From Actinomycetota bacterium (GTDB lineage Bacteria; Actinomycetota; Aquicultoria; SURF-47): a stretch of DNA of 64,000 nucleotides. Positions within the stretch are counted from its first letter, which is position 1. Each line of letters begins with the position of its first letter. Location of the stretch: positions 16,585 through 80,584 of the forward strand of contig QZJE01000007.1 in assembly GCA_003599235.1 (NCBI GenBank), given 5' to 3'. The notes beneath the pieces were generated by a model. That model did not search any database. It was not told the origin of the DNA and saw only the letters and a program-made list of their open reading frames with translations. This document shows positions 639-28,999 of this stretch, in pieces. The position numbers were made by a program, and so were the translations under genes.

Positions 639-1612
639 TACATATTCCTTTCAATTACTAAATTTGCCAATCGCGTTAGCTCATCCTTTATATTACCAGT
701 CTTTAATATATTTAATGAAGCAATAGCTTTGCCGATATAATCCTTAGCCTGGCTTCTACTTTTCTTAATTGCTTTTGTTTGCTTAACCAAGACGACCGCT
801 TCTAATATTTCTTCATCAGAATTATCACGATTTTGTACTGCATTGACTAGGACACTTTTTTCGCTCAGCTCATCAAGAGCTAAAAATATTGGCAGCGTCA
901 TCATACCATCTCTTATATCTGAAGCCACCGCTTTACCCATTGTTCTTTCGTCTCCAATAAAATCCAGTATGTCATCGAAAACCTGAAAAGCCAGGCCAAG
1001 ATTATGTCCATAATCGCCTAAAGCTTCGACTTCTGCTTCACCTAAATCTGCACAGTAGGCCCCGATAAGGCAAGCCGCCCGGAATAAACTAGCTGTTTTA
1101 AAAGCAATTTTTTTATAATACAAATCGATATTTTGCCTTGCATTATAAGCAGTGTTTCTTTGCAGTATCTCGCCTAAGCTTAATTTGAAAGCAGAAGCAG
1201 CTAAAATGCGGTTTAATTTAGGATTATTGCAGCGGCTTAATGTCAAAAAAGCAGAAGAAAAAATAAAATCGCCTGTTTTAAGAGCATAATCATACCCATA
1301 CTTGGCATAAACGGTAGGTTTTCCCCGTCTTGTTTTTGAATAGTCTAGAACATCATCGTGGATTAATGAAGCACTATGCAACAGCTCTAAGGAAGCAGCT
1401 GCCGGTATAAGCTGCTGCTCGTTTTGGTGATGGCCGCAAATAATAGTTAATGCCGGTCTTACTTTTTTGCCACCAGATGAAAGAGTATCCAGGCAACCTT
1501 GCTTAACCGTTTTGGAGTTAGACAGTATATTTTTTAGCTCATCATCTACTTTTACCATGAGCTTTTTAGTGTTTTTAGAAAGGGTTGATTTTGCAGAAGT
1601 ATTTAATGACAT
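638..1612 (-). CDS. Polyprenyl diphosphate synthase (trans-isoprenyl diphosphate synthase, IspB/HepT-like)
   Basis: 324 aa with both aspartate-rich motifs (LIHDDVLD first DDxxD, FQVFDDILD second DDxxD) and overall polyprenyl-synthetase architecture. Confidence 0.85.
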   Translation of the reverse strand: MSLNTSAKSTLSKNTKKLMVKVDDELKNILSNSKTVKQGCLDTLSSGGKKVRPALTIICGHHQNEQQLIPAAASLELLHSASLIHDDVLDYSKTRRGKPTVYAKYGYDYALKTGDFIFSSAFLTLSRCNNPKLNRILAASAFKLSLGEILQRNTAYNARQNIDLYYKKIAFKTASLFRAACLIGAYCADLGEAEVEALGDYGHNLGLAFQVFDDILDFIGDERTMGKAVASDIRDGMMTLPIFLALDELSEKSVLVNAVQNRDNSDEEILEAVVLVKQTKAIKKSRSQAKDYIGKAIASLNILKTGNIKDELTRLANLVIERNM

Positions 1613-2133
1613 AGCTTTCCTAACGCAACTGCGCTGTCGAGTAAATACTGATAACGCTTATGGCCGTCTTGACCATTTGCAATGCCTTCTTTAATAGCAT
1701 TTGCCAATATCCGCGTTGCTTCCACATCGTCTTGCTCACTTGATAAGCTAATTCCTTTGGCATAAGAATAATCCCCTAGTATAATAGCTAACCCGGGATC
1801 TTCTATGCTCGAAGTATGATACCTAAGAGCTAAGTTAAAAAACTCTAAGGCTAAACATAAGCTTTTTAGTTTAGAAAAATCATATTCTCTGTCAATAGCA
1901 GTACTGAGCAGTAGGCGTGAAAGAGCAAAATCCGGTTCAAGAAGCTCTTCATGGTAATTTTGTTTCAGCTCATCGCTTAACTTGTCGAACTCAGCCTTAA
2001 TAATTAGTAAATCAGACTCTGTATCTCTTGGATAATTCTGCGCAAACATGTGGACAATAATAGCACGTTCTTGCCTTTTTAGCTCAAGGAAGCTAAAATA
2101 TACTCTGGTCTGGGGACTAACATTTCTATGCAT
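1603..2133 (-). CDS. Degenerate polyprenyl-synthase-like protein lacking the DDxxD motifs (possible non-catalytic partner subunit)
   Basis: 176 aa. LAIILGDYSYAKG resembles the chain-length region of prenyl synthases (LAGDFLYSRA), but the position of the first DDxxD motif reads SSIEDPG. It overlaps the downstream synthase by 10 nt. The real start may be the internal Met (MFAQNY), which would leave room for the divergent leuA promoter. Confidence 0.4.
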   Translation of the reverse strand: MHRNVSPQTRVYFSFLELKRQERAIIVHMFAQNYPRDTESDLLIIKAEFDKLSDELKQNYHEELLEPDFALSRLLLSTAIDREYDFSKLKSLCLALEFFNLALRYHTSSIEDPGLAIILGDYSYAKGISLSSEQDDVEATRILANAIKEGIANGQDGHKRYQYLLDSAVALGKLCH

Positions 2134-2158
2134 TCCAAAAGCTAGGAGAAATTAATAA

Positions 2159-3328
2159 ATGACTTTGCAGAATTTTGATTTAAAAGCAAAAGGTAAACAA
2201 ATAAGTATTGACGATACGACTCTTAGAGACGGCGAACAGACTGCCGGTGTAGTTTTCGCTAACCGCGAAAAGATTAGAATAGCCAAACTGCTAGACGAAG
2301 TTGGCGTCGACCAAATCGAAGTCGGAATCCCTGCCATGCGCGGGGACGAAAAAGAAACTATCAAAAAGATAGCCAAGCTGGATTTAAATGCCAGCATACT
2401 CGCTTGGAATAGAACAGTGTTATCTGACATCCGCCATTCGCTTGACTGCGGAGTTAATGCCGTTGCCCTGTCAATTTCAGCGTCAGATATTCATATCGAC
2501 CATAAACTAAAAAAAAGCCGGTCATGGGTATTAGAGAGCATCAAGGAAAGCGTTAGTTTTGCAAAAAGTAAGAACCTTTATGTCTCTGTTAATGCAGAAG
2601 ACGCCTCCAGAGCCGACCTGGAGTTTTTGGTAAGATTTGCCAAAACTGCTAAAAAAGCCGGTGCCGACCGCTTACGCTTTTGCGATACCTTGGGAATATT
2701 AGACCCCTTTGAGACATTTAAAGTAATTAAAGCCTTGATTGAGGCTACCGGTATCGAAGTTGAAATGCATACTCATAACGATTTCGGGATGGCAACTGCA
2801 AACGCGCTAGCCGGAGCAAAAGCTGGTGCTACCTGGATAAATACTACGGTTAACGGACTTGGTGAGCGTGCCGGTAACGCTGCTTTAGAAGAAGTTGTTA
2901 TGGCTCTTAAGTTGCTAAGCAAAATTGATTTAGGTTTTAAAACCAAGATGTTTAGAGACTTATCCGAATACGTTGCTAACGCAAGCGCTAGAACAATTCC
3001 CGTTTGGAAAGCTATCGTCGGAACAAACGTCTTTGCTCACGAATCTGGTATTCATGCTGATGGGGTACTGAAAAATCCTTTAACCTATGAGTCTTTTTCC
3101 CCTGATGAAGTGGGACTGGAGAGACAATTGGTAATCGGAAAACACTCAGGCACTGCTTCCATCGTCTCAAAATTTAAGGAATTCGGCATAGAATTAGAAC
3201 AAGAAGATGCTCAAGCAGTTCTGGAAGAGGTCCGCTCACACGCCGTAGGTATGAAAAGAGCCTTATTTGATAAAGAGCTGATGTATATTTTTAAAGACTA
3301 TAATAAGTCAAAGAAGAAAAAGAAATAA
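2159..3328 (+). CDS. 2-isopropylmalate synthase / citramalate synthase / homocitrate synthase family protein (short form without the LeuA regulatory dimerisation domain)
   Basis: TTLRDGEQ motif, HTHNDFGMATANALAGAKAGA, and a TIM-barrel HMGL-like domain. At 389 aa it lacks the C-terminal regulatory domain. AGGAG RBS 8 nt upstream. It heads the leuC-leuD-leuB cluster. Confidence 0.8.
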   Translation: MTLQNFDLKAKGKQISIDDTTLRDGEQTAGVVFANREKIRIAKLLDEVGVDQIEVGIPAMRGDEKETIKKIAKLDLNASILAWNRTVLSDIRHSLDCGVNAVALSISASDIHIDHKLKKSRSWVLESIKESVSFAKSKNLYVSVNAEDASRADLEFLVRFAKTAKKAGADRLRFCDTLGILDPFETFKVIKALIEATGIEVEMHTHNDFGMATANALAGAKAGATWINTTVNGLGERAGNAALEEVVMALKLLSKIDLGFKTKMFRDLSEYVANASARTIPVWKAIVGTNVFAHESGIHADGVLKNPLTYESFSPDEVGLERQLVIGKHSGTASIVSKFKEFGIELEQEDAQAVLEEVRSHAVGMKRALFDKELMYIFKDYNKSKKKKK

Positions 3329-4581
3329 TGGGCAAAACGATAGCGGAAAAAATATTAAGCAAACATTCTAACAATGATGCTCATGCCGGCGATTTAGTAG
3401 TAGCAGACCTAGATTTCGTAATGGGCCAAGACGGCACATCCCCTTTGGCTATCAGGGCATTTGAAGAGATGGGTGCTACTGAGGTATTTAATAAAGAAAA
3501 GGTGGTCATGGTAATAGACCATAGCGCCCCTTCCCCGTTAGAGGGTGTTAGTGCCTTACACCATTTAATGCGCGAGTTCGCTAAAGATAAAGGCATTAAG
3601 CTATATGATATTGGCTGTGGAGTGTGCCACCAATTGGTTCCTGAGCAAGGACACGTAGCTCCCGGTAATTTAGTTGTAGGAGCCGATTCACATACATGCA
3701 GCTACGGCGCCATTAATGTTTTCTCTACCGGGGCCGGCTCAACTGATATAGCTGCCGCTATGGCTTCTGGCAAACTATGGTTTAAAGTCCCCGAGACTAT
3801 TAAGTATATTCTTAACAACAAACTAGCAAAAGGAGTTTACTCAAAAGACCTCATTTTATACCTAATCGGCAAAATAACCGCAGATGGCGCTACCTATAAA
3901 GCAGTTGAGTTTACCGGAGAGACTATCGGGAACTTAAGTATCGACGCCCGTTTTACTATTTCGAATATGGCAATTGAGATGGGAGCTAAAGCTGGGTTAA
4001 TGGAAGCTGACGACAAGACAATTGAGTGGGTAAAGAAAAGAAATAAAACAGCTTTTGAGCCGGTAAGTCCTGACAGTGATGCTAATTACTTAGAAGTAAT
4101 AGAGTGCGACTGCTCCAAAATAGAGCCTCAAATAGCCAAACCGCATACCGTTGATAACGTAAGTCCTATTAGTGAACTAGAAGGAACGCCTATTCACCAG
4201 GCTTTCATTGGAACATGCACCAATGGACGCCTAGAAGATTTTAAGATTGCCTCACAGATATTAGCAGGCAAGAAAATTAATTCGGACGTAAGATTTATTA
4301 TTGCTCCCGCTTCCAAAGATATTTTATTGGAAGCCACTAATATGGGATACATGCAGAAATTAATTGAGGCCGGAGCTGCTTTAGTTACCGCTGGTTGTGG
4401 CCCCTGTGTAGGAACTCATAACGGTGTTCCCTCAGATGGGGAGAATGTAATATCTACTGCTAACCGTAATTTTAAAGGAAGGATGGGGAACTCTAACGCC
4501 TCGATTTACTTAGGCTCTCCGGCTACGGTAGCAGCCTCTGCCCTGACTGGCAAAATCACTGATCCCCGTAATTATCTATAA
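3328..4581 (+). CDS. leuC: 3-isopropylmalate/(homo)aconitate dehydratase large subunit (aconitase family)
   Basis: 417 aa, aconitase-family large subunit of the archaeal/short type (Fe-S cysteine ligands in GTCTNGR and GCGPCVG). Its start overlaps the stop of the upstream synthase (TAATG). Confidence 0.85.
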   Translation: MGKTIAEKILSKHSNNDAHAGDLVVADLDFVMGQDGTSPLAIRAFEEMGATEVFNKEKVVMVIDHSAPSPLEGVSALHHLMREFAKDKGIKLYDIGCGVCHQLVPEQGHVAPGNLVVGADSHTCSYGAINVFSTGAGSTDIAAAMASGKLWFKVPETIKYILNNKLAKGVYSKDLILYLIGKITADGATYKAVEFTGETIGNLSIDARFTISNMAIEMGAKAGLMEADDKTIEWVKKRNKTAFEPVSPDSDANYLEVIECDCSKIEPQIAKPHTVDNVSPISELEGTPIHQAFIGTCTNGRLEDFKIASQILAGKKINSDVRFIIAPASKDILLEATNMGYMQKLIEAGAALVTAGCGPCVGTHNGVPSDGENVISTANRNFKGRMGNSNASIYLGSPATVAASALTGKITDPRNYL

Positions 4582-4728
4582 GTTGCCTCTGGGTCAAAAA
4601 TTCAACAAGTTGCCGTATATCTTTTCCAAGCCGCGGATTTTTCCCAGCGTGAAAAATACCGCTTAACTATTGTTTAATGCCTTCTACCCCCTACCACCTA
4701 CTCCCTACTCCCTGCTATACTATTCCAA

Positions 4729-5247
4729 ATGACAATTTCAAAAGAAGTTAGCAATTTAACAGGTTTTCCGAAACTTCCAAAACCACTAATAAAGCTATTT
4801 TTAAAAGCCCCTTGGCTGGTACCGGTAAGAATCCGCTGGAAAGTGGCCTCTAAGGGAATAGGTCTTTTGATGACAGCCGTAACCGGTAAAGATGATTCAT
4901 TATCTATGTCGTGTAAAGAACTTGGCCTCAGACAAGCTAAGGCACTTAAAGATAGCTTACAAGTTGGCAGTAGCCTTAAAGAAGTAATGCAAGTTATACG
5001 TTTAGCTAACCGCCTCTTTGGAACAAAACATACTTTTAAGATGATTAACCCTACTACTTCTAGAACCTTAGTAAAAAAATGCGCTTGGGCTGGTAGCGAT
5101 ACTTGGGGACAAAAAGCGTGCGCAACCCTGTCTGCTTATGAAATCGGCTTGGCTGAAGGATTAAATGACAAAGTTAAAATCAGATTTATCACTAAAATGG
5201 CTAAAGGGGACTCGGTTTGTCAAGCAGAGTACACCCTAAATCAATAG
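4729..5247 (+). CDS. Hypothetical protein inserted between leuC and leuD
   Basis: 172-aa ORF with coding-like composition and no recognisable motifs. It fills a 750-nt gap in an otherwise compact operon. Real status uncertain. Confidence 0.35.
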   Translation: MTISKEVSNLTGFPKLPKPLIKLFLKAPWLVPVRIRWKVASKGIGLLMTAVTGKDDSLSMSCKELGLRQAKALKDSLQVGSSLKEVMQVIRLANRLFGTKHTFKMINPTTSRTLVKKCAWAGSDTWGQKACATLSAYEIGLAEGLNDKVKIRFITKMAKGDSVCQAEYTLNQ

Positions 5248-5337
5248 ATTTATGCTACAATCGCTTTTGTTCTATAACCACAAAGTGCGGACAGACATCC
5301 AGCCAGATAAGGATGCCCTGTCCCTGATGGAGACCAT

Positions 5338-5838
5338 ATGAAATTAAAAGGTAGTGCTCATAAGTTCGCAGATAACGTAAACACCGACTACATTATTAGC
5401 GGCAAATATAAGTTTAAAACACTAGACATGAAAGAACTGGCTAAACATGTCATGGAAGATTTAGATCCGGACTTCTATAGCAAAATTAGCCCCGGTGATT
5501 TTATTGTCGCCGGTTCCAATTTCGGCTGTGGCTCATCACGTGAGCAAGCCCCATTGGCTATTAAGAATGCTAATATCAGCGCCGTATTAGCTAAATCTTT
5601 TGCTAGAATATTTTTTAGAAATGCTATTAATACTGGATTGGCGGTTGTTGAATGTGACACCGACAAGATAAACCCTAACGATAAACTAGAGGTTGACCTT
5701 TCTAAAGGCCTAATTAATAACCTCACACAAGGAATAACCATTGAAGCAAAACCCCTGCCTGGTGTAATGCTTAAAATATTAGGTGACGGAGGATTGGCTC
5801 CGCACTTTAAAAGATATGGAAGTTTTGGAGGAAAATGA
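5338..5838 (+). CDS. leuD: 3-isopropylmalate dehydratase small subunit (archaeal-type short LeuD)
   Basis: 166-aa aconitase swivel domain, matching the length of archaeal-type LeuD. Its stop overlaps the leuB start (ATGA). Confidence 0.8.
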
Positions 5839-6833
5839 AGCATAGAGTTACTCTAATCCCTGGAGACGGTATCGGACCAGAGCTATCAGCAGCTACCAAA
5901 TTAGTTGTAGAAGCTACGGGTGTGGATATAGTCTGGGATGAAGTAGCAGCCGGAGAGACAGTTATGGCTAAATATAACACTTCCCTTCCTGACTATGTGC
6001 TCGATTCGATAAAAGAAAATAAAGTAGCCATTAAAGGCCCAATCACCACCCCAATAGGCTCCGGATTTAGAAGTGTTAATGTTGCTTTGCGCAAAGAGCT
6101 TGGCTTGTATGCTTGTTTGCGACCCTCGGTTAGCATGGAGGGAGTTAAAAGCCGCTATCAAAATATAGACCTAGTAATAGTTAGAGAAAATACCGAAGAT
6201 CTTTATGCCGGTAATGAACGGATGATAGATGAAGATACCGCTGAAAGCATCAAGGTCATAACAAGAGGTGCTTCCAAAAAAATCGCCAAGTTCGCATTTG
6301 ACTATGCTAAAACAGAAGGGCGTAGAAAGGTAACCTCTGTCACAAAGGCAAATATTATGAAGTATACCGACGGACTGTTTTATGAGGCTTGCCGCGAAGT
6401 AGCTAAGGGTTATCCTACCATTGAATACGATGAGCACTTAATTGATGCCATGTGTATGCAGCTGGTTTTAAAGCCCGGAGACTACGACGTTATGGTTATG
6501 CCTAATTTATACGGCGATATTTTGTCAGATTTATGTGCCGGCTTAATTGGCGGACTTGGAGTTGCTCCAGGAGCCAATATTGGTGATGAATACGCAGTTT
6601 TTGAACCAGTGCATGGAAGTGCTCCTAAATATGCCGGTCTTAACAAAGCTAACCCCACCGCTATGATTTTATCAGCAGTGCTGATGCTAAAACACTTAGG
6701 CGAGAAAGAAGCCGCAGATAAGTTGCATAAAGCAACGGCTGATGTCATTGCTAAAGGCTCTACCGTTACCTACGACTTAGGCGGATCTTCCGGTACTAGT
6801 GAATTTGCAAAAGCAATTGCCGCTAAGATGTAG
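5835..6833 (+). CDS. leuB: 3-isopropylmalate dehydrogenase / isocitrate-homoisocitrate dehydrogenase family
   Basis: 332 aa with the [10 protein letters not shown] signature of beta-decarboxylating dehydrogenases. The short form is typical of archaeal-type LeuB. Confidence 0.8.
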
Positions 6834-19242: not shown

Positions 19243-22200
19243 TTACAGAATAACTAATCTTGCTTTTGCAACTCTTAACTGCTTATTTCCAGCTCTGTCC
19301 GTAGCATACATAAAATATTCATAACTTCCTTTTCTTAATTTAGCTTTAGTCTTGATAATCCTTCTAACACCAATTTTTTGGCATCCAGTTTTTAACGTCT
19401 TGATTTGCTTTTTACCTTTCTTGATAATTATTTTCGTATAAAGTAATCCTCCGGTGAAAGCATCTCTTATCGTAGCCTTAAACTTAACAACCTTGCCTCT
19501 TCTTGCTCTTACATTGTATGCCTTAACCCTGGGCTTACTATTATCAACTACTACAAATAACTTTGTCACTTCTTCATCACCCATTGCATCCATGGCTTTA
19601 GCTGTAATAATATGCGGACCATTTCTTACTTTCCTTGTGTTCCAAATTATAGGATTTCTAAATCCAAAAGCCTTTTCATGGTTATCAAGAAATAACAAAA
19701 TGGTTTTGGGGACAAAGCCATCTAAACTTTCAATATTTATTTTAAAGCGGCCCCCAATATAGGAATTTGAAAGCCCTTTGAACTTTATTCTTGGTAATTT
19801 TTTAACATCCGTTTGCACCTCATTGCTATATGTACTTGCGTTACCAGCATTATCAACTGCCTTTACCCTAAAACTATAACTTTTCTTTTCCATCAGATCA
19901 GCAAATGTATAATTGTTCATATATATGGGCGTATTTACCTGCTGCCAATTGGTGTCGCCAATATTATATTCAAGTAAGTAATAGCTCATCCCAGATAAAC
20001 CTATCTGATCTTGTGATAATAACCAATTTAGATTAATAAAATAATCCCTAGTATGTTTAGGTATTTCTTGCAATAAAGGTGCACTTGGAGATGTCTTATC
20101 AATCTTTAATTCAATTTGTTTGTCTTGCTCTAGATTTCCAGCTTTATCTTGCGAACGATAAGCTAGGTTAGCAATTCCCTCTCGGTTGATACTAAATGCC
20201 GTATCGTAGACCTGCCAAGTAGCCCCGTTATCAAGGCTATACTCTGTCTTTTGTATTCCTAACCCATCAGCATTATCTTGAGCGCTTAAAGATACATTAA
20301 CATCTGAGGTATACCATCCATTATCTCCTTTGGCGCCTGAAATAATTATAGAAGTAACAGGAGAAGTTGTATCGGTAATCATAATCTTTGCCTCTAAGCT
20401 GCTCTCTAAATTACCTGTTTTGGCAACAACTTTAATGTTATGTAACCCCAATTTTTGTGACCCTAAATCATAACTAAATGATTGATATCCATTTACCGAA
20501 ACACCATTTGATATCACTTGGTTATTATCAATAATAACTTGAATATTTGCGCTAGATTGCTGGCTGGAAAAAACATCGTAGCTAAGCTTTACAGCATCGG
20601 CTGGGCAATATAACGGCTTGTCTGTTTTAATCGACGTTAGTGAAATACCTGTAATATCAAAATACTGGGTTCCACTATCCAAAACTACTCCGTTTTTGAC
20701 TATCCAATAACATAGTTTATGAATACCTAGTGTATTTGTATCCAGCTCTAAATCATAACTAAAGTCATTTTTGCCAGCGTTTAATTGCCTATTGGTATCC
20801 ATAACTTTTGTTTCTTTGCCGGTAGGATCATATATTGAAGCAATAAACTTGCCATCGAAAGCTGATTCACAATCAGCTTTGAAGTTTAGCTTTAACGTAT
20901 CTTGCGGATTATAAACACTCTTATCCAACGAAGAATCATTTATTGTTAAGTCGAGACTGTCGACATCAATGAAGATTTGCCCACTTTCACCATCTAAACT
21001 GTAATCGACGGGATAGGTTCCGCCCTTAAGTTCCTGCGGCAATTGGAAGTTAAAGGAAGTATCGCCAGAAATCGTCAGGTCTTTAATATAATTAGGTGCA
21101 TTAACTTTTAAAGTGCCTGGTTTGCTTGATTTTACTTCTATATTTACAGTGTCTCCAGGATTATAAACGCTTTTATCAGCAATCAAGCTTAAAGTATTGT
21201 TCTCTTGCCTTGCGTAAAGACTGTTTAGATATAATGCCCTGCCGGTACTTGCATATACTCCATAGGAGATTTTCTCCTCACCCTTATTAAGTGGAATATC
21301 TAAAGTAACTTGCTTGCTTCCATTAAGAATAAAGTTATCTGTTTTAGCTTCATTGTCACCGGATGATGCTTTCGCATAAACTTCAATTTCAGGCAACGTG
21401 CTTTCGTTAATAATGTCTAGCGTAATAAATGCATGGTCGCCTACCATATATACATCTTTATTAAGAGTAGCTTCTGTATTTATTTTGATACCCTTGATTT
21501 GGTAATCAATAGTTCTTTGCTCTTGACCTGCTAAATTATAAATTGCAGGATAACTTTTTTCCTCTAGATCGATAGGTGTGTTAAAAATAACCTGAATTTC
21601 TTTTTCTTCTCCAGGTTGAATATATTCGTACTTTTTATCGGTAAAAATACCGGTTGAATCGAAATCTAATTCTGCTTGAGCTTCGATGTTGCCAGTATTT
21701 TTAACCTTAAAATTAAAGGTAGCTTGTTCGCCAGTAGTAAAGCTAAGGTTTTGAGGCTCCTGGGTTATAGTAAAATGTGCAGGCTTAATTTCGACTGGGA
21801 TACTAGTGTTAGCTAAAACCGTACCATCAACTCCAATGGCTTCAACTAAAATATCATGCCTGCCCGGTGTTGCCGCCGCTGTTCGTAAGGCTGAATCGGT
21901 ATTTTTGCTTTCGCCGGCAGCAACTTCTACCTCGATTTCTGTAGAATCGAAAGTAGCGCCAGTCTTTAACTTCCCACAAAATGAACCAAATCCGCCATTT
22001 GTTAGCTTAGTAGTGAATGTGATTTTGCCATCTGGTGTTGGAGTTAGATTAAAACTCGTATTTAAACTAATATCGTTTTCTTTAAGCACCTTTACTGAGC
22101 TACTACCGGAAAATAGCGATGATTGATAGGCTAAATAATAAGTACCTGCATTTTGGGGACTAAACGTAACTGTACTATCATATACATTTCCTTTCGGAAC

Positions 22201-25200
22201 ATAAACGCTTTTGATTACAGATTCATTATTGAGACTAAAAGCAACGTCAAAAGAGCTGTCTATTAAGCCTGAGTTGGTAATACTAAAAGGTATCTCAATA
22301 ATTTTTCCTTGGCCATAGTACTCTTTTTGATTAAGTGCAATGTCGTCTTTTTCTCCAAAAGACACAGTTTTTGTTTGAGTTAAAGTAACATCTCCTGTTA
22401 GTTCTGCTTTAAACTCCGTATTCTTATTAATAGCAACCGAATAATCGACAATTTTTTGCTCGCCTGGCTGCAGAGTAATATTTTCTTGCTTTAGAATTCC
22501 ATTGTTATCTGAAAAAGCGAGGTCGCCACTAAACTCAATATCAGCAGCATTTTTAATAGTAGCGGTTAAGACAAAGGGGCTTATCCCGACCATCGAAGGA
22601 GCTTCAAAAGTTAACTCTGCTTTAGGCTGGATTATTTTTACCGACTCGTCGACAGTAGCATCAACAAACGTAGCTTTAAGATTAAAACTATCAGCTGCAG
22701 TAGTTGTGCAAGAAAAAGGCTTACTTTCGCCAGATGATAGATAAGAAATATTTTCTGTATAAATTACTTCCTGATTTTTATATATATTTAGCACTTTGTT
22801 TTCCAGTGGCAACTCTGCACTATTCTTTAATTGACCAGTAATAGTTATTGTTTCATTTGGCTTAAAGGCTTTTTTGTCAGCATTTAGAGATAACTCTGTT
22901 TTGCCTGGAAAGATATAGAAAGGATAGATACTCTTGGCAATTGTTTGACCGTTGCTGGATTTCAAAGTCTCTTGTAGATACAACTTACCTGTTGCGTCTA
23001 TTGAGCCTATTGCTTCACTGATATTTGATGTTTCATTAGGCGCTAGACTGATAGGCATTTGTTTTTGCCAGAATGTTTCTTTTGGTGATCCAGGATTAAA
23101 CAAATATACGCTAGAAGTCCCATTTTCATCTTCTTGCCAGACAACATTATTGCCCGAAACACTAGGAGAATATTGGTCTGAAGAGTCAGAAGTAACTCTG
23201 AACTCCGTTCTTGTTTCTAGATCATAACCGTAAACATCTTTATTTCCGTTTCGATTATCAGTCCAAGCAATCATATTCCCGTCTATAGTTGGTTCGGTTT
23301 GGTCGGAAGCATTACTGGTAATTCGCTGTTCTTTTTGAGTTGTAATACCGTATACATAAATATCCCAATTGCCATTTCTATTATCTTGATAAACGATTGT
23401 ATCCCCTGATATTGAAGGTAAAAGCTGCTCAAAGCTATCACTAGTTAAATTGCGCCTTGTGTTGGTAATAGTATTGAGTAAATAAATATCATCATTAAAA
23501 CTCCAAACAATATTGTTATTATCTATAGATGGAGAAAGGCCTAATCCAATCCCCCTCAACTCTCCTGTTAACATGTTGAATGTAGTAATTTCACCAAAAA
23601 AATCTGCCCAAACAACCGTATCTTCATAAATATCTGGATCTATACAAGGAGATTGGTAGGAATTACTTAGTTCCCTCATTTTATTGGTTATTAGGTCATA
23701 TGATATAATTTCAAGCCCGCCACCATTAGTTCCCCCTGACCAGACCATCATATCGCCCGATATTGCCAGTTTATTGTCACCTAAGAGTGGTTCCATACAG
23801 ATACCGGTATCTATTCTTCGTTTCTCTTTCATTTGCAAATCATAAACACACAAGCTATTAGATAAATCTGAAGACTCAGCCCAAATTGCCCTATTGTTGT
23901 CTACGACAGGCATTACTTGCTCTGAAACACTGGTTCCCATAGATGCATTGCTATTAACTTGGCTTGCTGTATTATCGTCAATGTCATACATGAAAATATC
24001 AGCATTGCCGTTTCTGTAGTCTTCCCATACTAGTATTTCGCCTTGTACATCTGGTGATATCTGCATCGCCCCTGAGGAATCTATTCTTTGGGTTGTTTTA
24101 GTCTCAATATCATAAACACATACTTTCCATCCATATGGCATATCCTCAGTTGAACAATCTGTCCAAACAACCTTATCATCCGACAAACAAGGAGTTGAGG
24201 GTTCATAAAATGATAAATGCTGTACTTCTGCAATCCTTTCTTCCGTTCCTGAAAGAAAGTCATACAAATACAAATAGTGCTTGTTATCTTCCGTTCTAAA
24301 CCACATAGCTTTATTATTTGTAATCGCTAATTTCTCATAGTTAGCATAACCACATGAGTAATCACTGCTTATTTGTGATGCAGATTTTGACTCTAAATCG
24401 TACATAACTACGCTGGGTTTTGAGGTTCGATTATCGACAAAAAGTAATCTATTTCCAGAGATAGCTGGTTTATTTTGGTTATTATAATAATCAGGCCATA
24501 ACACTTCCTCTGTTTTAGTAACTAAATCAAAAATGCATACTTTGTTTACAAAGCCCATGGATCTGATACCTACTACTCGATTACCTGAAATTACCGCATC
24601 GTTATAGCTGTAAGGCAGCTTGTATTGACCTTTATTAGCCAAATCATAGACATATATAGAATTGTTTTCATTCCACAAAATGTTATTTTCAAAGATCTGG
24701 ATATCTGAAATAAAATCACTGGTAGATGCAGCTACTTTACTTTCCTCTCTACTTCCAAAATCATACAAATAAATCTCATCCCTGCTACTGCGATTATCTA
24801 CCCAAACCACTTTGTTCTGCCATACTGCAGGGTCTCTTTGTTTTGCTAGTTGTGGGCCACAATCCAGTTTTGTTTTTGGGCCTGCCATTATTCCTAATCC
24901 GTCTTTGAATACTTGTAAGCTTAAAGATCCATTGTCAACTTGGTTGGAACCATTAATTATGTTGGTTAGACTGTTAGCTATTTGGCCATGTAAATAGGCA
25001 GTTTTATCTGTCCTAACAATCATCTCAGCATTTGCACCATCTATAAATATCTTTTCGTAAATCTTAGCTTTCTCGCCAGTAGAAAGATTAGTAAAATTTG
25101 CCTTTAAATAATAATCCCCTCTAACAACCTCTTGTGGAATACTAAAATTGATACTTTGCTCTTCTCCAGCTTTGACACTACTAGCTCCTGACTGGATGTT

Positions 25201-28200
25201 TAGGATATCTTGCCCAAAAGAACCATGTAAGTTTATTTCATATATATAGTCCGTATCAACACCGCCAGTATTTTCTAAATTCACCGTAACATCATCACCA
25301 GGATGGTAATTGCCATCCGATAAATCGGTTTGCAATAATGCGGCTGGGGTATATATTTTGCAATCAGTGCTCGTAAAACTAGTTCCTATCTGTAAAGAAA
25401 CACGAACATTGTGTTGTCCGGGTAGCAAATCCTCGCTTAGTTCCACAGGGATACTTAATGGAGTAACCGAATTTGATTTTGAGAACAACTGATATTGTTG
25501 TAAATAATTGTCATCGATTGCAAAAGATACTACGACATTCTCATAATCGAAACTACCGTCGTTAACTATATCTATGGGCCAATTAACAAAATCTCTTATC
25601 TTAAAGATATTCTTTTGCTGTTTGGAAAACACTCTTGCAGATGAAGAAATGGTACTCGAATAGAGGGGGCTGTTATCAATTGAGTAATTGAATTTGTAAT
25701 TGCCCAGTTCTACCTCTGGGAAATTAGGATAAAAATCAATAATTTTCGTCTCTCTACCTATAACAATTGGTTTACTCTCACTAAATAACTCAATATTCAA
25801 AGGGTTAATGACTGAGAGGTTTATTTCACCATCATAATAAGCACCCTCATTACCAAAAGTAATCTGTGTTGAATTGCGCCCTACGTGTAAACTTGGAATG
25901 TTTTGATTATTTACTTTTATGTCTGGTTTACAGAATATTTTTATTTTATTAATTGACTTGTTTTTTAAAGATCTATTAATTAGTATTTCAGTGTTAATTT
26001 GGTAATTTCCTGTTTTAGTTGATATATCTTTAAGAATTAATTCGTCCGAAGCAACATACAAATCATTGGCATTTAAAATAATTGGCCGAGTTATTGATTT
26101 AATAACCTTATTATCAGGATCAGTTATTTTCGTTAATAAATTGCATACCAAGCTGTAGCCGTAAGGGTTAGAAATTTGATTTGTCAAAGTCATGTTTTCG
26201 GATATATCGAAAGCATCTTTATTAGTCGTTTGCTTCATTTCTAAATCAGGGAAAAAAGAGAGGATTTCCTTGACACAAGTAGACGAGCAACTATCATCAA
26301 TAGACTTAGCCGAAAGACAAAACAACTCGTTACTAGCTATGTTAGTTGCTATGAAACCCACAACTGCACTTTGTTCTGCCTTAATGAGTACAGTATCCTC
26401 TAAATGATCAATCTGGGTGCCTGCATATCTTTTTAGATATTTTACATTTATCCATGTATCATGTTCGCTATTGTTGTAAACCGTTGCAGTAACTGGTACT
26501 GAGCAACCCTGAGGATAGAATTTATTAGGGTCGTTGATGCTAATACTTATTTTAGATGGGATATTGACTCCCTCTTGTGGTTCAATAGAGGAAAATCTTT
26601 TCCCTTCAGATTGGGGCTGTATTATCTCATCATTAACCCCATGTAATTCATAATCGATATAGTTAATTCCTAAATTATTAGATATTGGATTGCTCTCATA
26701 TTCAATACTTGTTGTTTCTCCAGCATCAAGATTTATATCAACAACCCTATTTGCTACTGGCTTTCTATCCCTATTAGTTAATATAAGCTTCACTTTTTTG
26801 GCCGAATACTTTGTTAAGTTTTTTATGTATTGTGAAACAGCTAGCGCTTCATTGGCTTTTACAACTTGAATGTTTTCATTTGGGTTCTTTGCCCAGGATA
26901 TTATGTCTTCAAATAATGTTCTTTCAGAGGATGATATTGAACGCATCCCGTAAGACCAATCTAGCATTGATGAAGTAACAATAATCATTCCCTTATTGTA
27001 TGGATAAGCGACAATATCAGGCATATTATTTGCAACTCTCATCGACAGTATTTCAGAGTTGCTGGGGCAGTTATATAAATAACCGTCAACCGGTAAATTT
27101 AAGACCGTGCTAGTTTGCCCCGAAAAAATTGGATGAATTTTTGATATTCTTGTTGAATCACCGTAACAGCTAATGTCTTCACGCCAGCCTGCTCCGCTAA
27201 TATTGCCAGGTAAAGCATTAAAATAGCGGCCGTATTGTTGGTCGAAGCAAATAATTGTCCCGCCTTCTTCTGCACATTTTTTGAGCTTTTCTTTAAATAC
27301 TTCGGAGGTATCTAGGCCTGTTAAACCTCCTGTTGGAATTATTAGGATTTGATTGCTCTTTGAGGAAGTAGGATCAAACTCTTCCGGAGTTACATCTATA
27401 TAGGGCTCGTTTATGTTATCTAAGAACTTTCTATCGGCAAAATAAAACCCCGTTTTCAGTAATTGGATATCGGGTGTTGCCTTCCAGTCGGCACTTATTT
27501 GTAAAGCATTGTTATTGATATCCCTGCTTAAATTACTAATTACCTTTTCTTGATTATCTAATTCTTCTTTACTGGCACCGCTTCCTTGAAGTACTTGATA
27601 TTTTTCTAGTTCATCAAGCATCCGCTTGGATTTAAGAAAGCTGTTAAGTGTACCTTTTTTAACAGCTAACCGTAAAAATTTATTCATCTCTTGTTTTAAT
27701 GATGTGAAGTCCGTGTTTACAATACTGGAACTAGAGTAGTTATCATCAGGATGATCATTTCCCGGATGGTCCAGAAGATGGTTAGAATAAACAAAATCCT
27801 CTATTAAACTCTTTACCGAGCCAATAGCCGCAGGCGCTAACTCATCTAAATACCATTTATTTACAGCTTCACCATCTTCCCCGCTTAAATCGTACGGATA
27901 TAAACCAAGTGGAAAATATTCAACCCAAGTTTGTCGGAAAGGAGATAATGTTAGATTAGTGAAGCTGTTGTGTAATTGAAAATCATAGTCCGCGGTGCGC
28001 CATAAGCTTCTGTCAAAAGTATAGTAAGCCATAGATCTAAGACTTAATGAACCACTTGGACGTGTTGAATTTTCCCAATGTGCTTTGAAGTAATCTTCTG
28101 TACTATCCCCACCGATAATAGAACCATGCGGTTTTGAATGAACATGAGATGGCGAGGCCATGTCTTCAAGTAAATGAGCAGCCCTACCTAATGAATAAAA

Positions 28201-28542
28201 TGCATTACTGACCATACCTTTACTGGCTAAATTATCAGCCTCATCCTTGTTAGTGTTAAACCTGCGGAGTGCCGTTAAATAAGTGTCTCCTAACCACCCT
28301 TGGCCAGTATAAGGATTATATCCATGATACATCCACCAAGCTGCCTGATCTTCATCAGAAGAACCATCAGCTAATTTTTGCTTGTTTGATCTTACAATCT
28401 CCGAGCTTACATAATCAGCAGCAATTGAAGTCATATTCTTGTGAATGCCAGGATCATGAGCTTTGACTTTGTTGGTCAAGATAATAGGCATAATTAAGAT
28501 GATTATTAATATTGCAAAAGCCTTTAAAATTATACTTTTCAT
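19243..28542 (-). CDS. Giant secreted/cell-surface multidomain protein (3099 aa)
   Basis: Single uninterrupted 9.3-kb ORF. Residues 1-25 form a signal peptide/TM. Residues ~28-270 (nt ~27732..28461) resemble Bacillus cereus Zn-dependent PC-PLC (AFYSLGRAAHLLEDMASPSHVHS against AFFYLGLSLHYLGDVNQPMHAAN). Residues ~390-560 are an unknown alpha/beta domain. Residues ~570-1230 and ~1850-2730 carry many CARDB/Ig-like beta-sandwich repeats. Residues ~1235-1815 (nt ~23100..24840) hold about 14 PD40 beta-propeller repeats (xVWxDxRNGNxDIYxYDL). Residues ~2735-2815 are a Big/OmpL47-type Ig-like domain (GWYTSDVNVSL...TEYSLDNGATWQ). Residues ~2818-2912 are an FN3 domain. The C-terminal ~90 residues form a lysine/arginine-rich tail. 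Confidence 0.8.
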   Translation of the reverse strand: MKSIILKAFAILIIILIMPIILTNKVKAHDPGIHKNMTSIAADYVSSEIVRSNKQKLADGSSDEDQAAWWMYHGYNPYTGQGWLGDTYLTALRRFNTNKDEADNLASKGMVSNAFYSLGRAAHLLEDMASPSHVHSKPHGSIIGGDSTEDYFKAHWENSTRPSGSLSLRSMAYYTFDRSLWRTADYDFQLHNSFTNLTLSPFRQTWVEYFPLGLYPYDLSGEDGEAVNKWYLDELAPAAIGSVKSLIEDFVYSNHLLDHPGNDHPDDNYSSSSIVNTDFTSLKQEMNKFLRLAVKKGTLNSFLKSKRMLDELEKYQVLQGSGASKEELDNQEKVISNLSRDINNNALQISADWKATPDIQLLKTGFYFADRKFLDNINEPYIDVTPEEFDPTSSKSNQILIIPTGGLTGLDTSEVFKEKLKKCAEEGGTIICFDQQYGRYFNALPGNISGAGWREDISCYGDSTRISKIHPIFSGQTSTVLNLPVDGYLYNCPSNSEILSMRVANNMPDIVAYPYNKGMIIVTSSMLDWSYGMRSISSSERTLFEDIISWAKNPNENIQVVKANEALAVSQYIKNLTKYSAKKVKLILTNRDRKPVANRVVDINLDAGETTSIEYESNPISNNLGINYIDYELHGVNDEIIQPQSEGKRFSSIEPQEGVNIPSKISISINDPNKFYPQGCSVPVTATVYNNSEHDTWINVKYLKRYAGTQIDHLEDTVLIKAEQSAVVGFIATNIASNELFCLSAKSIDDSCSSTCVKEILSFFPDLEMKQTTNKDAFDISENMTLTNQISNPYGYSLVCNLLTKITDPDNKVIKSITRPIILNANDLYVASDELILKDISTKTGNYQINTEILINRSLKNKSINKIKIFCKPDIKVNNQNIPSLHVGRNSTQITFGNEGAYYDGEINLSVINPLNIELFSESKPIVIGRETKIIDFYPNFPEVELGNYKFNYSIDNSPLYSSTISSSARVFSKQQKNIFKIRDFVNWPIDIVNDGSFDYENVVVSFAIDDNYLQQYQLFSKSNSVTPLSIPVELSEDLLPGQHNVRVSLQIGTSFTSTDCKIYTPAALLQTDLSDGNYHPGDDVTVNLENTGGVDTDYIYEINLHGSFGQDILNIQSGASSVKAGEEQSINFSIPQEVVRGDYYLKANFTNLSTGEKAKIYEKIFIDGANAEMIVRTDKTAYLHGQIANSLTNIINGSNQVDNGSLSLQVFKDGLGIMAGPKTKLDCGPQLAKQRDPAVWQNKVVWVDNRSSRDEIYLYDFGSREESKVAASTSDFISDIQIFENNILWNENNSIYVYDLANKGQYKLPYSYNDAVISGNRVVGIRSMGFVNKVCIFDLVTKTEEVLWPDYYNNQNKPAISGNRLLFVDNRTSKPSVVMYDLESKSASQISSDYSCGYANYEKLAITNNKAMWFRTEDNKHYLYLYDFLSGTEERIAEVQHLSFYEPSTPCLSDDKVVWTDCSTEDMPYGWKVCVYDIETKTTQRIDSSGAMQISPDVQGEILVWEDYRNGNADIFMYDIDDNTASQVNSNASMGTSVSEQVMPVVDNNRAIWAESSDLSNSLCVYDLQMKEKRRIDTGICMEPLLGDNKLAISGDMMVWSGGTNGGGLEIISYDLITNKMRELSNSYQSPCIDPDIYEDTVVWADFFGEITTFNMLTGELRGIGLGLSPSIDNNNIVWSFNDDIYLLNTITNTRRNLTSDSFEQLLPSISGDTIVYQDNRNGNWDIYVYGITTQKEQRITSNASDQTEPTIDGNMIAWTDNRNGNKDVYGYDLETRTEFRVTSDSSDQYSPSVSGNNVVWQEDENGTSSVYLFNPGSPKETFWQKQMPISLAPNETSNISEAIGSIDATGKLYLQETLKSSNGQTIAKSIYPFYIFPGKTELSLNADKKAFKPNETITITGQLKNSAELPLENKVLNIYKNQEVIYTENISYLSSGESKPFSCTTTAADSFNLKATFVDATVDESVKIIQPKAELTFEAPSMVGISPFVLTATIKNAADIEFSGDLAFSDNNGILKQENITLQPGEQKIVDYSVAINKNTEFKAELTGDVTLTQTKTVSFGEKDDIALNQKEYYGQGKIIEIPFSITNSGLIDSSFDVAFSLNNESVIKSVYVPKGNVYDSTVTFSPQNAGTYYLAYQSSLFSGSSSVKVLKENDISLNTSFNLTPTPDGKITFTTKLTNGGFGSFCGKLKTGATFDSTEIEVEVAAGESKNTDSALRTAAATPGRHDILVEAIGVDGTVLANTSIPVEIKPAHFTITQEPQNLSFTTGEQATFNFKVKNTGNIEAQAELDFDSTGIFTDKKYEYIQPGEEKEIQVIFNTPIDLEEKSYPAIYNLAGQEQRTIDYQIKGIKINTEATLNKDVYMVGDHAFITLDIINESTLPEIEVYAKASSGDNEAKTDNFILNGSKQVTLDIPLNKGEEKISYGVYASTGRALYLNSLYARQENNTLSLIADKSVYNPGDTVNIEVKSSKPGTLKVNAPNYIKDLTISGDTSFNFQLPQELKGGTYPVDYSLDGESGQIFIDVDSLDLTINDSSLDKSVYNPQDTLKLNFKADCESAFDGKFIASIYDPTGKETKVMDTNRQLNAGKNDFSYDLELDTNTLGIHKLCYWIVKNGVVLDSGTQYFDITGISLTSIKTDKPLYCPADAVKLSYDVFSSQQSSANIQVIIDNNQVISNGVSVNGYQSFSYDLGSQKLGLHNIKVVAKTGNLESSLEAKIMITDTTSPVTSIIISGAKGDNGWYTSDVNVSLSAQDNADGLGIQKTEYSLDNGATWQVYDTAFSINREGIANLAYRSQDKAGNLEQDKQIELKIDKTSPSAPLLQEIPKHTRDYFINLNWLLSQDQIGLSGMSYYLLEYNIGDTNWQQVNTPIYMNNYTFADLMEKKSYSFRVKAVDNAGNASTYSNEVQTDVKKLPRIKFKGLSNSYIGGRFKINIESLDGFVPKTILLFLDNHEKAFGFRNPIIWNTRKVRNGPHIITAKAMDAMGDEEVTKLFVVVDNSKPRVKAYNVRARRGKVVKFKATIRDAFTGGLLYTKIIIKKGKKQIKTLKTGCQKIGVRRIIKTKAKLRKGSYEYFMYATDRAGNKQLRVAKARLVIL

Positions 28543-28826
28543 TTATTTTTTCTTTTTTGAATTAGCAGTCCAAATACAGCACCAATTAATAAATAAATCG
28601 TTGTCCCCAATATAGGAATATAGAGTTGATAAAAAATCGGGTTTTCAAAGGCAGATGGGAAAAAAACTAGTCCAATGATAAATAATGGAAGATCGAACAC
28701 TATTGCAAACAATGCTGATAGATTGAACTCACCAGTCGTAAAATTAGTAAATAAAATAAGCGAAACAACAAGATGTGTTAGCCCAAATACAATTGCATAT
28801 TTTTGCCATAGTTTCAAACGTTTCAT
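28539..28826 (-). CDS. Small three-TM membrane protein translationally coupled to the giant protein
   Basis: 95 aa with three hydrophobic helices and a KRKNK tail. Its stop overlaps the ATG of the giant ORF (ATGA). Confidence 0.5.
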   Translation of the reverse strand: MKRLKLWQKYAIVFGLTHLVVSLILFTNFTTGEFNLSALFAIVFDLPLFIIGLVFFPSAFENPIFYQLYIPILGTTIYLLIGAVFGLLIQKRKNK

Positions 28827-28999
28827 GACTCTCCTGTCTCTTACCTAACTACCAACCGCTTGCAGTAATTATACCATCGCCATAGTAGGTTTTGCGATGA
28901 TTAATTTTGGTCAACTACCTATAGATTGATAATACTGCCAAATAGAGTTTGTAGTGAACCCTAAAAATTAGGGTATTTTTTGGTTAATAGTTGGGGTAT

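Follow-up and report, generated by a model that had tools for sequence, protein, structure and literature searches.

The product of the giant ORF at this locus is a modular protein of about 3,070 residues behind a Sec-type signal peptide, and we found that it belongs to a widespread family in which one long stalk carries exchangeable tip enzymes. The domain order is signal peptide, Zn-PLC-fold head, junction motif, linker, GATase1-like domain, array A and 14 blades, followed by array B, an OmpL47-type barrel, FN3 and a pair of Ig-like modules of which the second is strongly cationic. An architecture unique to this protein was rejected, since the protein is part of a large family whose heads are interchangeable. 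The window, that is the whole stretch of DNA analysed, is 64,000 nucleotides long and contains the following features.

28829..28835 (-): Shine-Dalgarno-like AGGAGAG before the small ORF, read from sequence
28539..28826 (-): 95-aa ORF (NCBI RJQ33005.1, hypothetical), three predicted TM segments, basic termini
28539..28542 (-): ATGA, TGA of the small ORF overlapping ATG of the giant ORF (ORF calls and sequence)
19243..28542 (-): giant ORF, uninterrupted, 3099 codons, ATG start
28459..28542 (-): signal peptide, aa 1-28 (MKS..., hydrophobic core, VKA/H), probable cleavage site by the AXA rule
27769..28458 (-): Zn-phospholipase-C-fold head, aa 29-258; putative ligands H34, D65, H73, H123, D127, H133, E149; family-invariant H139
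27727..27765 (-): family junction motif PGNDHPDDNYSSS, aa 260-272, consensus P-G-x-D-H-P-D-D-x-F-D-V-S
27478..27708 (-): helical linker or bundle, aa 279-355, conserved KKG
26863..27477 (-): GATase1-like domain (ThuA / GH42M / IFT52-GIFT-like), aa 356-560, invariant residues
24907..26862 (-): Ig-like array A, aa 561-1212, conserved scaffold block A
23077..24831 (-): 14 beta-propeller blades (TIGR04275 / PD40 / TolB-like), aa 1238-1822, variable mid-stalk insert
20392..23073 (-): Ig/MG-like array B, aa 1824-2717, conserved scaffold block B; weak CARDB, MG2 and A2M_BRD matches
20101..20313 (-): OmpL47-type beta-barrel domain, aa 2744-2814, domain-model match
19810..20088 (-): fibronectin type III domain, aa ~2819-2911, supported by two analyses
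19246..19800 (-): two C-terminal Ig-like (Big_13-like) modules, aa 2915-3099, second strongly cationic

The phospholipase C-type head

The original prediction had claimed a signal peptide and likened the N-terminal domain to B. cereus PC-PLC, and both claims held. The sole hydrophobic stretch of the giant protein is aa 1-28, ending in VKA/H. The single giant sequence lies under the Pfam detection level, with no match to PF00882 (Zn_dep_PLPC) and none in the PDB, whereas a profile of 15 family heads matches B. cereus PC-PLC (1ah7 and variants) and Listeria PlcB (8cqm) with E values from 1.4e-12 to 1.5e-11. The likeness to Zn-PLCs (1AH7, the clostridial alpha-toxin N-domain 1OLP, PlcB 8CQM; PF00882) is homology at the profile level.

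Nine residues bind the metals of B. cereus PLC: W1, H14, D55, H69, H118, D122, H128, H142 and E146. The profile alignment spans PLC residues 17-151, in which D55, H69, H118, D122, H128 and E146 are aligned; PLC H14 would lie opposite the G-x-H histidine of the family (H34 here) when the register is extrapolated three residues N-terminal, just outside the printed alignment. Seven of the nine ligands are matched in this way (H34, by extrapolation, D65, H73, H123, D127, H133 and E149). The other two differ from known Zn-PLCs: the head has no N-terminal ligand of the Trp1 type and no His in register with H142. Six head residues are invariant in the family (H73, H123, D127, H133, H139 and E149), three of them in the HLLEDMASPSH stretch at aa 123-133, and H139, near the H142 position, may be a substitute ligand.

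The head was assigned an all-alpha PLC fold, and it has in common with the Zn-PLCs the HxxxDxxxPxH and HFYNP/HFYDP signatures, as well as secretion through a signal peptide. An S1/P1 nuclease was rejected because the nucleases were not closest in fold or sequence. Through these comparisons the head is placed in the PLC branch of the Zn-dependent PLC / P1-nuclease superfamily, and its activity is a prediction. The known toxins are proteins of 25-45 kDa, whereas here the domain is the N-terminal tip of 3,099 residues, and the PLAT/C2-like C-domain of alpha-toxin is absent from the giant protein.

A constant scaffold with exchangeable heads

The family comprises at least 857 clusters (50% identity) from many bacterial phyla and archaea, with 857 representatives at E <= 1e-3 and 227 at E <= 1e-30. 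The 44 genome loci include Nitrospirota, Thermodesulfobacteriota, Acidobacteriota, Elusimicrobia, WOR-3, Desantisbacteria, Chloroflexota and Clostridia, together with three archaeal groups. Common to the family are a PGxDHPDDxFDVS junction, a helical linker, a GATase1-like domain and two Ig/MG-like arrays. Among 75 representatives of at least 2,000 aa, two of which (P0012 and P0013) are C-terminus-only matches, the linker and GATase1-like domain were found in 73 and block B in 68. The constant scaffold is composed of the junction, the GATase1-like domain and the two Ig arrays; three parts can be exchanged as cassettes, namely the catalytic head at the N-terminus, the insert in mid-stalk and the C-terminus.

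The junction motif is present in 109 family members (core positions D 93%, P 96%, D 100%). It has a pLDDT below 50 in the predicted model, and no peptidase module was identified. The GATase1-like domain, into which fall residues 390-560, singled out earlier for structure prediction, has the GATase1 alpha/beta fold over aa 356-560 and showed no sequence-level match to solved structures. Its nearest counterparts are non-catalytic GATase1-like domains (the GH42 beta-galactosidase domain, ThuA-like proteins and IFT52 GIFT), and by alignment it reads ILIIPTGG at the place of the GATase oxyanion strand. It is non-canonical: by secondary-structure register the predicted nucleophile elbow reads F-D-Q-Q, with an invariant Q435 and no Cys, instead of G-x-C-x-G, and the invariant residues are particular to this domain (Q435, C459, D486, R502, N505 and D528); C459 lies about 25 residues past the elbow.

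The stalk agrees with most of what had been predicted. The roughly 14 PD40-type blades were recovered as 14 by a repeat profile, and TIGR04275 scored 243.7 bits (cut-off 85) with seven individually significant stretches. The Ig-like arrays and FN3 were matched, and the OmpL47-type domain model NF047446 gave 76.3 bits (cut-off 40); the basic tail is seen in the last 94 aa, with 28 K+R against 3 D+E. CARDB is present but weak in array B. So are MG2, at 36.4 bits (cut-off 32.8) without an individually significant stretch, and A2M_BRD, at 24.4 bits (cut-off 22.7). Tandem Ig-like, FN3 and OmpL47-type modules forming a long extracellular stalk are also found in giant Ig-repeat adhesins and Leptospira OmpL47. 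However, the present protein has a presumed enzymatic tip and no RTX/T1SS signal, and it falls far under the cut-off of the full-length OmpL47 equivalog NF047441 (48.6 vs 250 bits). A sortase-anchored surface protein was rejected, as there is neither an LPXTG-like motif in the protein nor a C-terminal hydrophobic segment, and a Pfam-type domain search of the giant protein gave no SLH or LysM match. The earlier view that the architecture falls outside the standard adhesin and S-layer families is supported.

At least 36 unrelated head clusters sit on the scaffold, including Exo_endo_phos (EEP), M23, Transglut_core, RHS, Amidase_6, Zn_dep_PLPC, thioredoxin, alpha/beta-hydrolases, M14 and ZU5+TIG; envelope degradation is not obvious for some of them, such as the thioredoxin and ZU5+TIG heads. 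The closest relative, P0019, shows 30% identity over 2,470 aa and has the same propeller, with an EEP head. Pairs with different heads reach 78% identity downstream of the junction, and the median identity after it is 40.6% for same-head pairs vs 38.7% for different-head pairs.

This arrangement resembles polymorphic toxins in its constant, long, repetitive scaffold with highly variable enzymatic domains, in a short conserved junction at the border that is similar to a 'pre-toxin' motif, and in a head type uncoupled from scaffold similarity. The head repertoire likewise covers the degradation of lipids, peptidoglycan and proteins and extends to RHS modules, and for at least one scaffold pair a difference in head goes together with a different gene beside the variable end. 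In canonical systems (CdiA, Rhs, MafB and others) the variable domain is C-terminal and followed by the cognate immunity gene, and their toxin domains include the PLC/P1-related Tox-HET-C (Zhang et al. 2012, PMC3482391). Here the variable domain is N-terminal, directly behind the signal peptide, the gene downstream is pheS and the one upstream encodes an orphan TM protein, so that the canonical layout was rejected. No recognisable immunity protein, orphan cassettes or T5/T6/T7 secretion markers were seen, and the PGxDHPDD junction, GATase1-like module and Ig/MG arrays lie outside the described scaffolds.

Possible function of the giant protein

The best explanation as a whole, to which we give an even chance, is a tethered stalk protein with a metal-dependent phosphodiesterase tip attacking envelopes. 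After export the protein would remain at or near the cell surface, probably tethered by its cationic C-terminal module on anionic wall polymers; we infer this retention from the charge of the sequence. The source organism is a MAG labelled Actinomycetota with a presumed cell-envelope type, and an LCP ligase in the genome is consistent with anionic wall polymers. The Ig arrays and propellers would form a stalk that serves both as a long spacer and for targeting. The tip is predicted to hydrolyse phospholipid head groups on other cells, vesicles or debris, another phosphodiester being the less likely substrate. The purpose might be antagonism, predation or nutrient release, and an envelope-attacking role is favoured since most family heads are envelope-degrading enzymes.

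Nutrient scavenging without cell-cell antagonism is about half as probable: the head would act on lipids or nucleic acids in the environment, freeing phosphate, diacylglycerol or nucleotides to supply the producer itself, with the stalk and propellers binding particulate substrate. The Zn-PLC / P1 nuclease fold of the head is used by secreted scavenging enzymes, M14 carboxypeptidase and alpha/beta-hydrolase heads suit polymer degradation, no immunity gene was recognised, and the family members found are all from environmental MAGs. However, such enzymes are normally small and abundant rather than single-copy stalked proteins of 3,000 aa, the RHS-toxin, M23 and Amidase_6 heads on the same scaffold suggest cell attack, and the rapid head exchange is typical of conflict systems.

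A structural adhesin or surface-layer component, in which an inactive PLC-like head only binds, is rather unlikely. Ig-like arrays, FN3, the OmpL47-type domain and propellers are typical adhesin parts, and two PLC ligands are out of register; but six of the seven aligned ligands, together with H139, are invariant or nearly so over 15 heads at 22-32% identity, which would be difficult to account for if the head neither catalysed a reaction nor bound metal, and other heads in the family score above Pfam cut-offs as genuine hydrolase domains. Very improbable is an alpha-2-macroglobulin-like trap for attacking proteases, proposed from the MG2 and A2M_BRD matches in block B and the same Pfam families in relatives: no thioester CxEQ was found anywhere in the protein and no TED, CUB or receptor-binding domain match, block B matched no solved A2M or complement structure in sequence, and neither propellers nor an enzymatic head at the N-terminus belong to the A2M type.

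The gene pair and its locus

Both ORFs are real. An artefact, with the giant ORF a chimera or decaying pseudogene and the 95-aa ORF a chance product, is the least probable reading of all: the source is a MAG contig, both proteins are singleton clusters and metagenome scans gave no close relative, but 3,099 codons stay open in DNA of 36% GC, the codon score is positive in the annotated frame only (also the top-scoring frame) for both ORFs, a strong SD precedes the small ORF, which encodes three TM segments, and aa 259-2730 are collinear with P0019, a protein of another assembly, which argues against an assembly chimera. The GC3 values of the two ORFs are 0.22 and 0.29, vs 0.37-0.39 for pheS and trpE, which supports their joint acquisition.

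Housekeeping flanks of pheST/arg and his genes had been described, and they are present, with pheS, pheT, argC and argJ downstream; directly upstream, however, is trpE, and then hisIE, hisF and hisA. The window also carries an LCP gene, Wzt transporters and a YfhO-like gene. The proposed tie to the glycan locus was not supported: that locus lies about 10 kb from the giant gene, past the his genes, and no evidence for a link between the two was found.

The 95-aa protein has hydrophobic segments at about aa 10-28, 36-57 and 66-90. The ORF coordinates agree with the reported ATGA overlap, and the sequence preceding the giant ATG is only AAAAAGAAAAAATAA, with no SD equivalent; translational coupling is plausible because of these two features. 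The idea of a conserved dedicated partner failed, as no relative of the small protein was found in 46 family loci, in its own 90% cluster or in a metagenome scan, and the relative closest in architecture lacks a small upstream ORF. It could be a spurious ORF or a very young gene. Upstream sequence could be read at about 28 family loci, and roughly 20 of these have a closely spaced gene there that encodes a TM or signal segment. The type of this gene varies from locus to locus and changes with the head in P0075/P0081, the one near-identical scaffold pair examined; no immunity-like gene was identifiable. The 95-aa protein, plausibly coupled in translation to the giant gene and probably acquired together with it, might be a lineage-specific accessory (anchor, export aid or self-protection factor).

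What is new is the placement of the giant protein in a widespread family of one long stalk with swapped tip enzymes, and this family of giant bacterial and archaeal proteins is apparently undescribed. In this organism the protein would be a phosphodiesterase displayed on the surface with a long reach, serving to attack cell envelopes or to scavenge lipid.

Gene pair in the window

The 3,099-aa secreted protein (RJQ33004.1, here the giant) and the 95-aa three-TM protein (RJQ33005.1) both carry the label 'hypothetical protein' in the deposited Actinomycetota MAG, and each forms a singleton 90% cluster. Their genes are arranged as follows:

19243-28542, minus strand: giant ORF, 3,099 codons without interruption
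28539-28826, minus strand: small ORF, 95 codons, its stop overlapping the giant start codon (ATGA)

The uninterrupted giant ORF and the overlapping small ORF, as claimed in the original prediction, were both read from the sequence, and for each the annotated frame was the sole frame scoring as coding. We found AGGAGAG five bases before the ATG of the small ORF; before the ATG of the giant the sequence is A-rich and lacks a Shine-Dalgarno element. Because of the ATGA overlap and the Shine-Dalgarno sequence found only at the small ORF, it is reasonable to infer that translation of the giant is coupled to that of the small ORF.

Upstream of the pair lie trpE, hisIE, hisF and hisA; pheS, pheT, argC and argJ lie downstream. 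Third-position GC of the two ORFs was 0.22 and 0.29, against 0.37 and 0.39 in the flanking pheS and trpE, which suggests that they arrived jointly through horizontal transfer. trpE and the small ORF are separated by 173 bp, in which lies a perfect 17-nt palindrome, ACCCTAAAAATTAGGGT (28958-28974), that may be a terminator or an operator. Promoter and terminator signals in the window were at background level overall, and neither tRNA nor Rfam elements were present in it.

Domain organization of the giant protein

The giant has one hydrophobic segment, N-terminal and ending VKA/H, with no further TM-like stretch, which agrees with the predicted signal peptide. The other domain calls were also largely right. 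Where about 14 PD40-type blades had been proposed, the repeat profile counted exactly 14 (aa 1238-1822), and the curated propeller repeat TIGR04275 scored 243.7 bits against a cut-off of 85. The OmpL47-type barrel at aa 2744-2814 scored 76.3 bits against a cut-off of 40, though the giant is not a full OmpL47 equivalent. Through the curated models we confirmed FN3, and MG2, A2M_BRD, CARDB and Big_13 gave weak matches. The poly-basic tail was found as described: 28 of the last 94 residues are Lys/Arg and 3 are Asp/Glu, in a mature protein that is acidic overall. A search of the giant for the LPXTG and CxEQ thioester motifs found neither; a sortase substrate was rejected on the former, and an alpha-2-macroglobulin-like thioester protein on the latter and on the lack of a TED.

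As single sequences, residues 1-271 and 272-580 of the giant had no match in PDB or, at E <= 10, in Pfam, and the folds of the head and of the GATase1-like domain were detected by family profile and structure model only. With aa 28-580 as query, relatives were found when all 1.84 billion representatives were searched; a metagenome scan for relatives of aa 29-600 found none. Eighteen of the 160 best relatives have an H-L-L-x-D-M-x-x-P-x-H head, the same as that of the giant. The head profile, built from a 15-sequence alignment, matched Bacillus cereus PC-PLC and Listeria PlcB with E values of 1.4e-12 to 1.5e-11. In the alignment PLC D55 is paired with the family ED, H69 (HFYDP) with HFYNP, H118, D122 and H128 with H123, D127 and H133 of the giant, and E146 with E149. 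Of the PLC metal ligands, Trp1 has no equivalent in the giant's head and no His is in register with H142; a family-invariant His, H139, lies six residues past H133. Because of the profile matches and the pairing of putative ligands, the proposed Zn-PLC-like head is borne out at the fold/superfamily level, and both fold and profile place it in the Zn-PLC fold family.

The head is followed by a Pro/Ser-rich linker and then a 13-residue motif, P-G-x-D-H-P-D-D-x-F-D-V-S (aa 260-272), which we call the junction. It was found in 109 family members, with the D, P and D positions conserved at 93-100%, and is unstructured in the structure model. A classic acid-labile Asp-Pro site was unsupported here, the conserved dipeptide being His-Pro or Asn-Pro. 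Next come a helical segment (aa 279-355) and the GATase1-like domain, in which F-D-Q-Q occupies the catalytic-Cys position by strand/helix register, and Q435, C459, D486, R502, N505 and D528 are invariant. The profile of this domain had no sequence-level match in PDB. It looks like a non-catalytic domain of the ThuA, GH42M or GIFT type, or else may have an unrecognised active site.

A constant scaffold with interchangeable heads

The giant belongs to a large family of bacterial and archaeal proteins in which a fixed scaffold carries swappable N-terminal enzymes; literature searches found no description of it. Local comparisons gave two conserved blocks common to relatives, aa 258-1212 and aa 1824-2717. 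Architecture was counted in 75 representatives that reach 2,000 aa or more; two of them, P0012 and P0013, match at the C-terminus only. The linker and GATase1-like region occurred in 73 of the 75, array B in 68 and array A in 52; parts of the giant's C-terminus were common to 10. The propeller insert was found, apart from the giant, in only one representative, and other members have a mid-stalk insert of CarboxypepD_reg and PPC domains or an NHL propeller.

The sequences preceding the junction fell into at least 36 unrelated clusters.

Head types found N-terminal of the junction
Zn-PLC-like: several clades, one above the Pfam PF00882 cut-off
Exo_endo_phos
Peptidase M23 and peptidase M14
Amidase_6
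Transglutaminase core
Alpha/beta-hydrolase: two types
Thioredoxin
ZU5+TIG
RHS repeats: end in DPLGL, then about 250 more residues
HExxH protein
Many without an identified domain

Five representatives (P0028, P0038, P0072, P0096 and P0113) have a full RHS-repeat module N-terminal of the PGxDxPDD junction; in these proteins the family scaffold thus has an Rhs-type toxin module attached at its N-terminus.

The nearest architectural relative, P0019 (3,102 aa), is 30% identical to the giant and collinear with it from the junction to aa 2730, propeller included; its head is an EEP domain, unlike the PLC-type head of the giant. The P0019 blades (aa 1288-1823) are almost identical to each other (AISGDKIVWxDxRNGNxDIYMYDLATETERQITTD), as if recently amplified or homogenised; in contrast, the 14 blades of the giant (23077-24831) are well diverged. 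The P0019 gene adjoins a HinfI-type restriction-modification pair and a 900-aa PHP + AAA/SMC-like protein (898-5995 of its locus, L047), a neighbourhood that looks like a defence island.

Members with unrelated heads are up to 78% identical just past the junction, and median post-junction identity was 40.6% for same-head pairs and 38.7% for different-head pairs. Post-junction identity being independent of the head, head type is, as judged by these comparisons, uncoupled from scaffold descent, as expected under cassette exchange at the junction.

The genome scan gave 44 family loci, all in MAGs. The bacterial loci belong to Nitrospirota, Thermodesulfobacteriota and other former Deltaproteobacteria, Acidobacteriota, Elusimicrobia, WOR-3, Desantisbacteria, Chloroflexota and Clostridia, and the archaeal loci to Methanobacteriota, Thermoplasmatota and Bathyarchaeia; one relative belongs to a named species, Paenibacillus ginsengarvi. 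In one locus (L002, 4001-15218) a 1,223-aa ORF with MG2, A2M_BRD and CARDB matches comes after the gene of P0005 (2,527 aa) and overlaps it; the two are probably one family gene split by a frameshift or assembly error.

Upstream genes and possible role

The small protein, with three hydrophobic segments and basic termini, had been proposed as a dedicated membrane partner, and it proved an orphan: phmmer (E <= 10) against all ORFs of 46 family loci found no relative, and neither its protein cluster nor the metagenome scan contained one. Upstream of P0019 is a 424-bp gap with no plausible ORF. The specific pair of small TM gene and giant is therefore not conserved. We found a same-strand TM/signal gene overlapping the giant start or within 35 nt of it at about 20 of the approximately 28 loci whose upstream sequence could be read, several with a 4-nt overlap like that of the window. 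The types differ. The first, a conserved 240-295-aa protein with a TM/lipoprotein signal, a CarboxypepD_reg-like part and a TPR-like C-terminus, occurs at 13-14 PLC-head loci of Nitrospirota and Desulfobacterota MAGs, and was detected neither at non-PLC-head loci nor in the window. The second is Yip1-like (168 aa), and the third has a Zn-ribbon and 3 TM segments; homology of the 95-aa ORF to either was rejected.

L001, L003, L004, L006-L010, L013, L015, L016, L020, L034, L044: 240-295-aa upstream protein
L048, 873-1379: Yip1-like 168-aa membrane protein, 4-nt overlap
L050, 1049-2548: 499-aa lipoprotein-like protein

P0075 and P0081 (L048 and L050) are 78% identical past the junction, yet their heads are unrelated and so are their upstream genes, which encode the Yip1-like membrane protein in one and the 499-aa lipoprotein-like protein in the other; this one pair suggests, and does not prove, that a head and its upstream gene can move as a unit.

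In working mode the closest known systems are the polymorphic toxin/effector systems (Zhang et al. 2012, PMC3482391). Unlike in those, the variable domain of the giant is N-terminal and there is no downstream immunity gene, and therefore the giant was not filed as a member.

Through Sec the giant would be exported, with the signal peptide cut after A28, and its cationic C-terminal Ig-like module would hold anionic wall polymers and retain it at the surface. Together with two propellers of presumably seven blades each, the Ig arrays would form a spacer and targeting stalk, and the head, a putative metal-dependent phosphodiesterase, would act on phospholipids of debris or of other cells. Since envelope-degrading heads preponderate across the family, we favour attack on envelopes rather than pure adhesion as its role; scavenging is also conceivable. 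The LCP ligase, Wzt transporters, YfhO-like protein and RmlD encoded in the window are consistent with a monoderm wall with secondary polymers. GC falls to 0.32-0.36 at 54-64 kb.

38101-60274: wall-glycopolymer locus, with YfhO-like protein, GT2, methyltransferase, two Wzt-type ABC ATPases, RmlD, LytR-CpsA-Psr ligase, PfkB+cytidylyltransferase, B12-radical SAM enzyme and GT2+GT1 fusion

Tentatively, and with considerable doubt, we might speculate that the family is an inverted polymorphic effector system of bacteria and archaea, with a swappable N-terminal warhead and an upstream gene cassette. A Sec-exported giant scaffold of GATase1-like domain and Ig/MG arrays would present the enzymatic warhead, which would be swapped by recombination at the PGxDHPDDxFDVS junction together with the immediate upstream gene, a head-specific membrane accessory or immunity factor. 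The junction may also be where the warhead is released or activated. The orphan 3-TM gene and the PLC head of the window would be one such cassette.

If true, this kind of system was previously unrecognised, and hundreds of 'hypothetical proteins' of 2,500-4,600 residues in uncultured bacteria and archaea would be built alike, on a long stalk that stays constant and an enzyme plugged in at the distal tip. This would give them a testable common logic of surface-displayed, exchangeable hydrolases aimed at cell envelopes, and polymorphic effectors as a concept would then also cover archaea and an N-terminal format that depends on Sec. It would mark out three points for study: the PGxDHPDD junction, the upstream genes linked to the heads, and the GATase1-like module, which looks non-catalytic. 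For the window, an unannotated 9.3-kb gene would become a candidate stalked phospholipase C with named putative catalytic residues.
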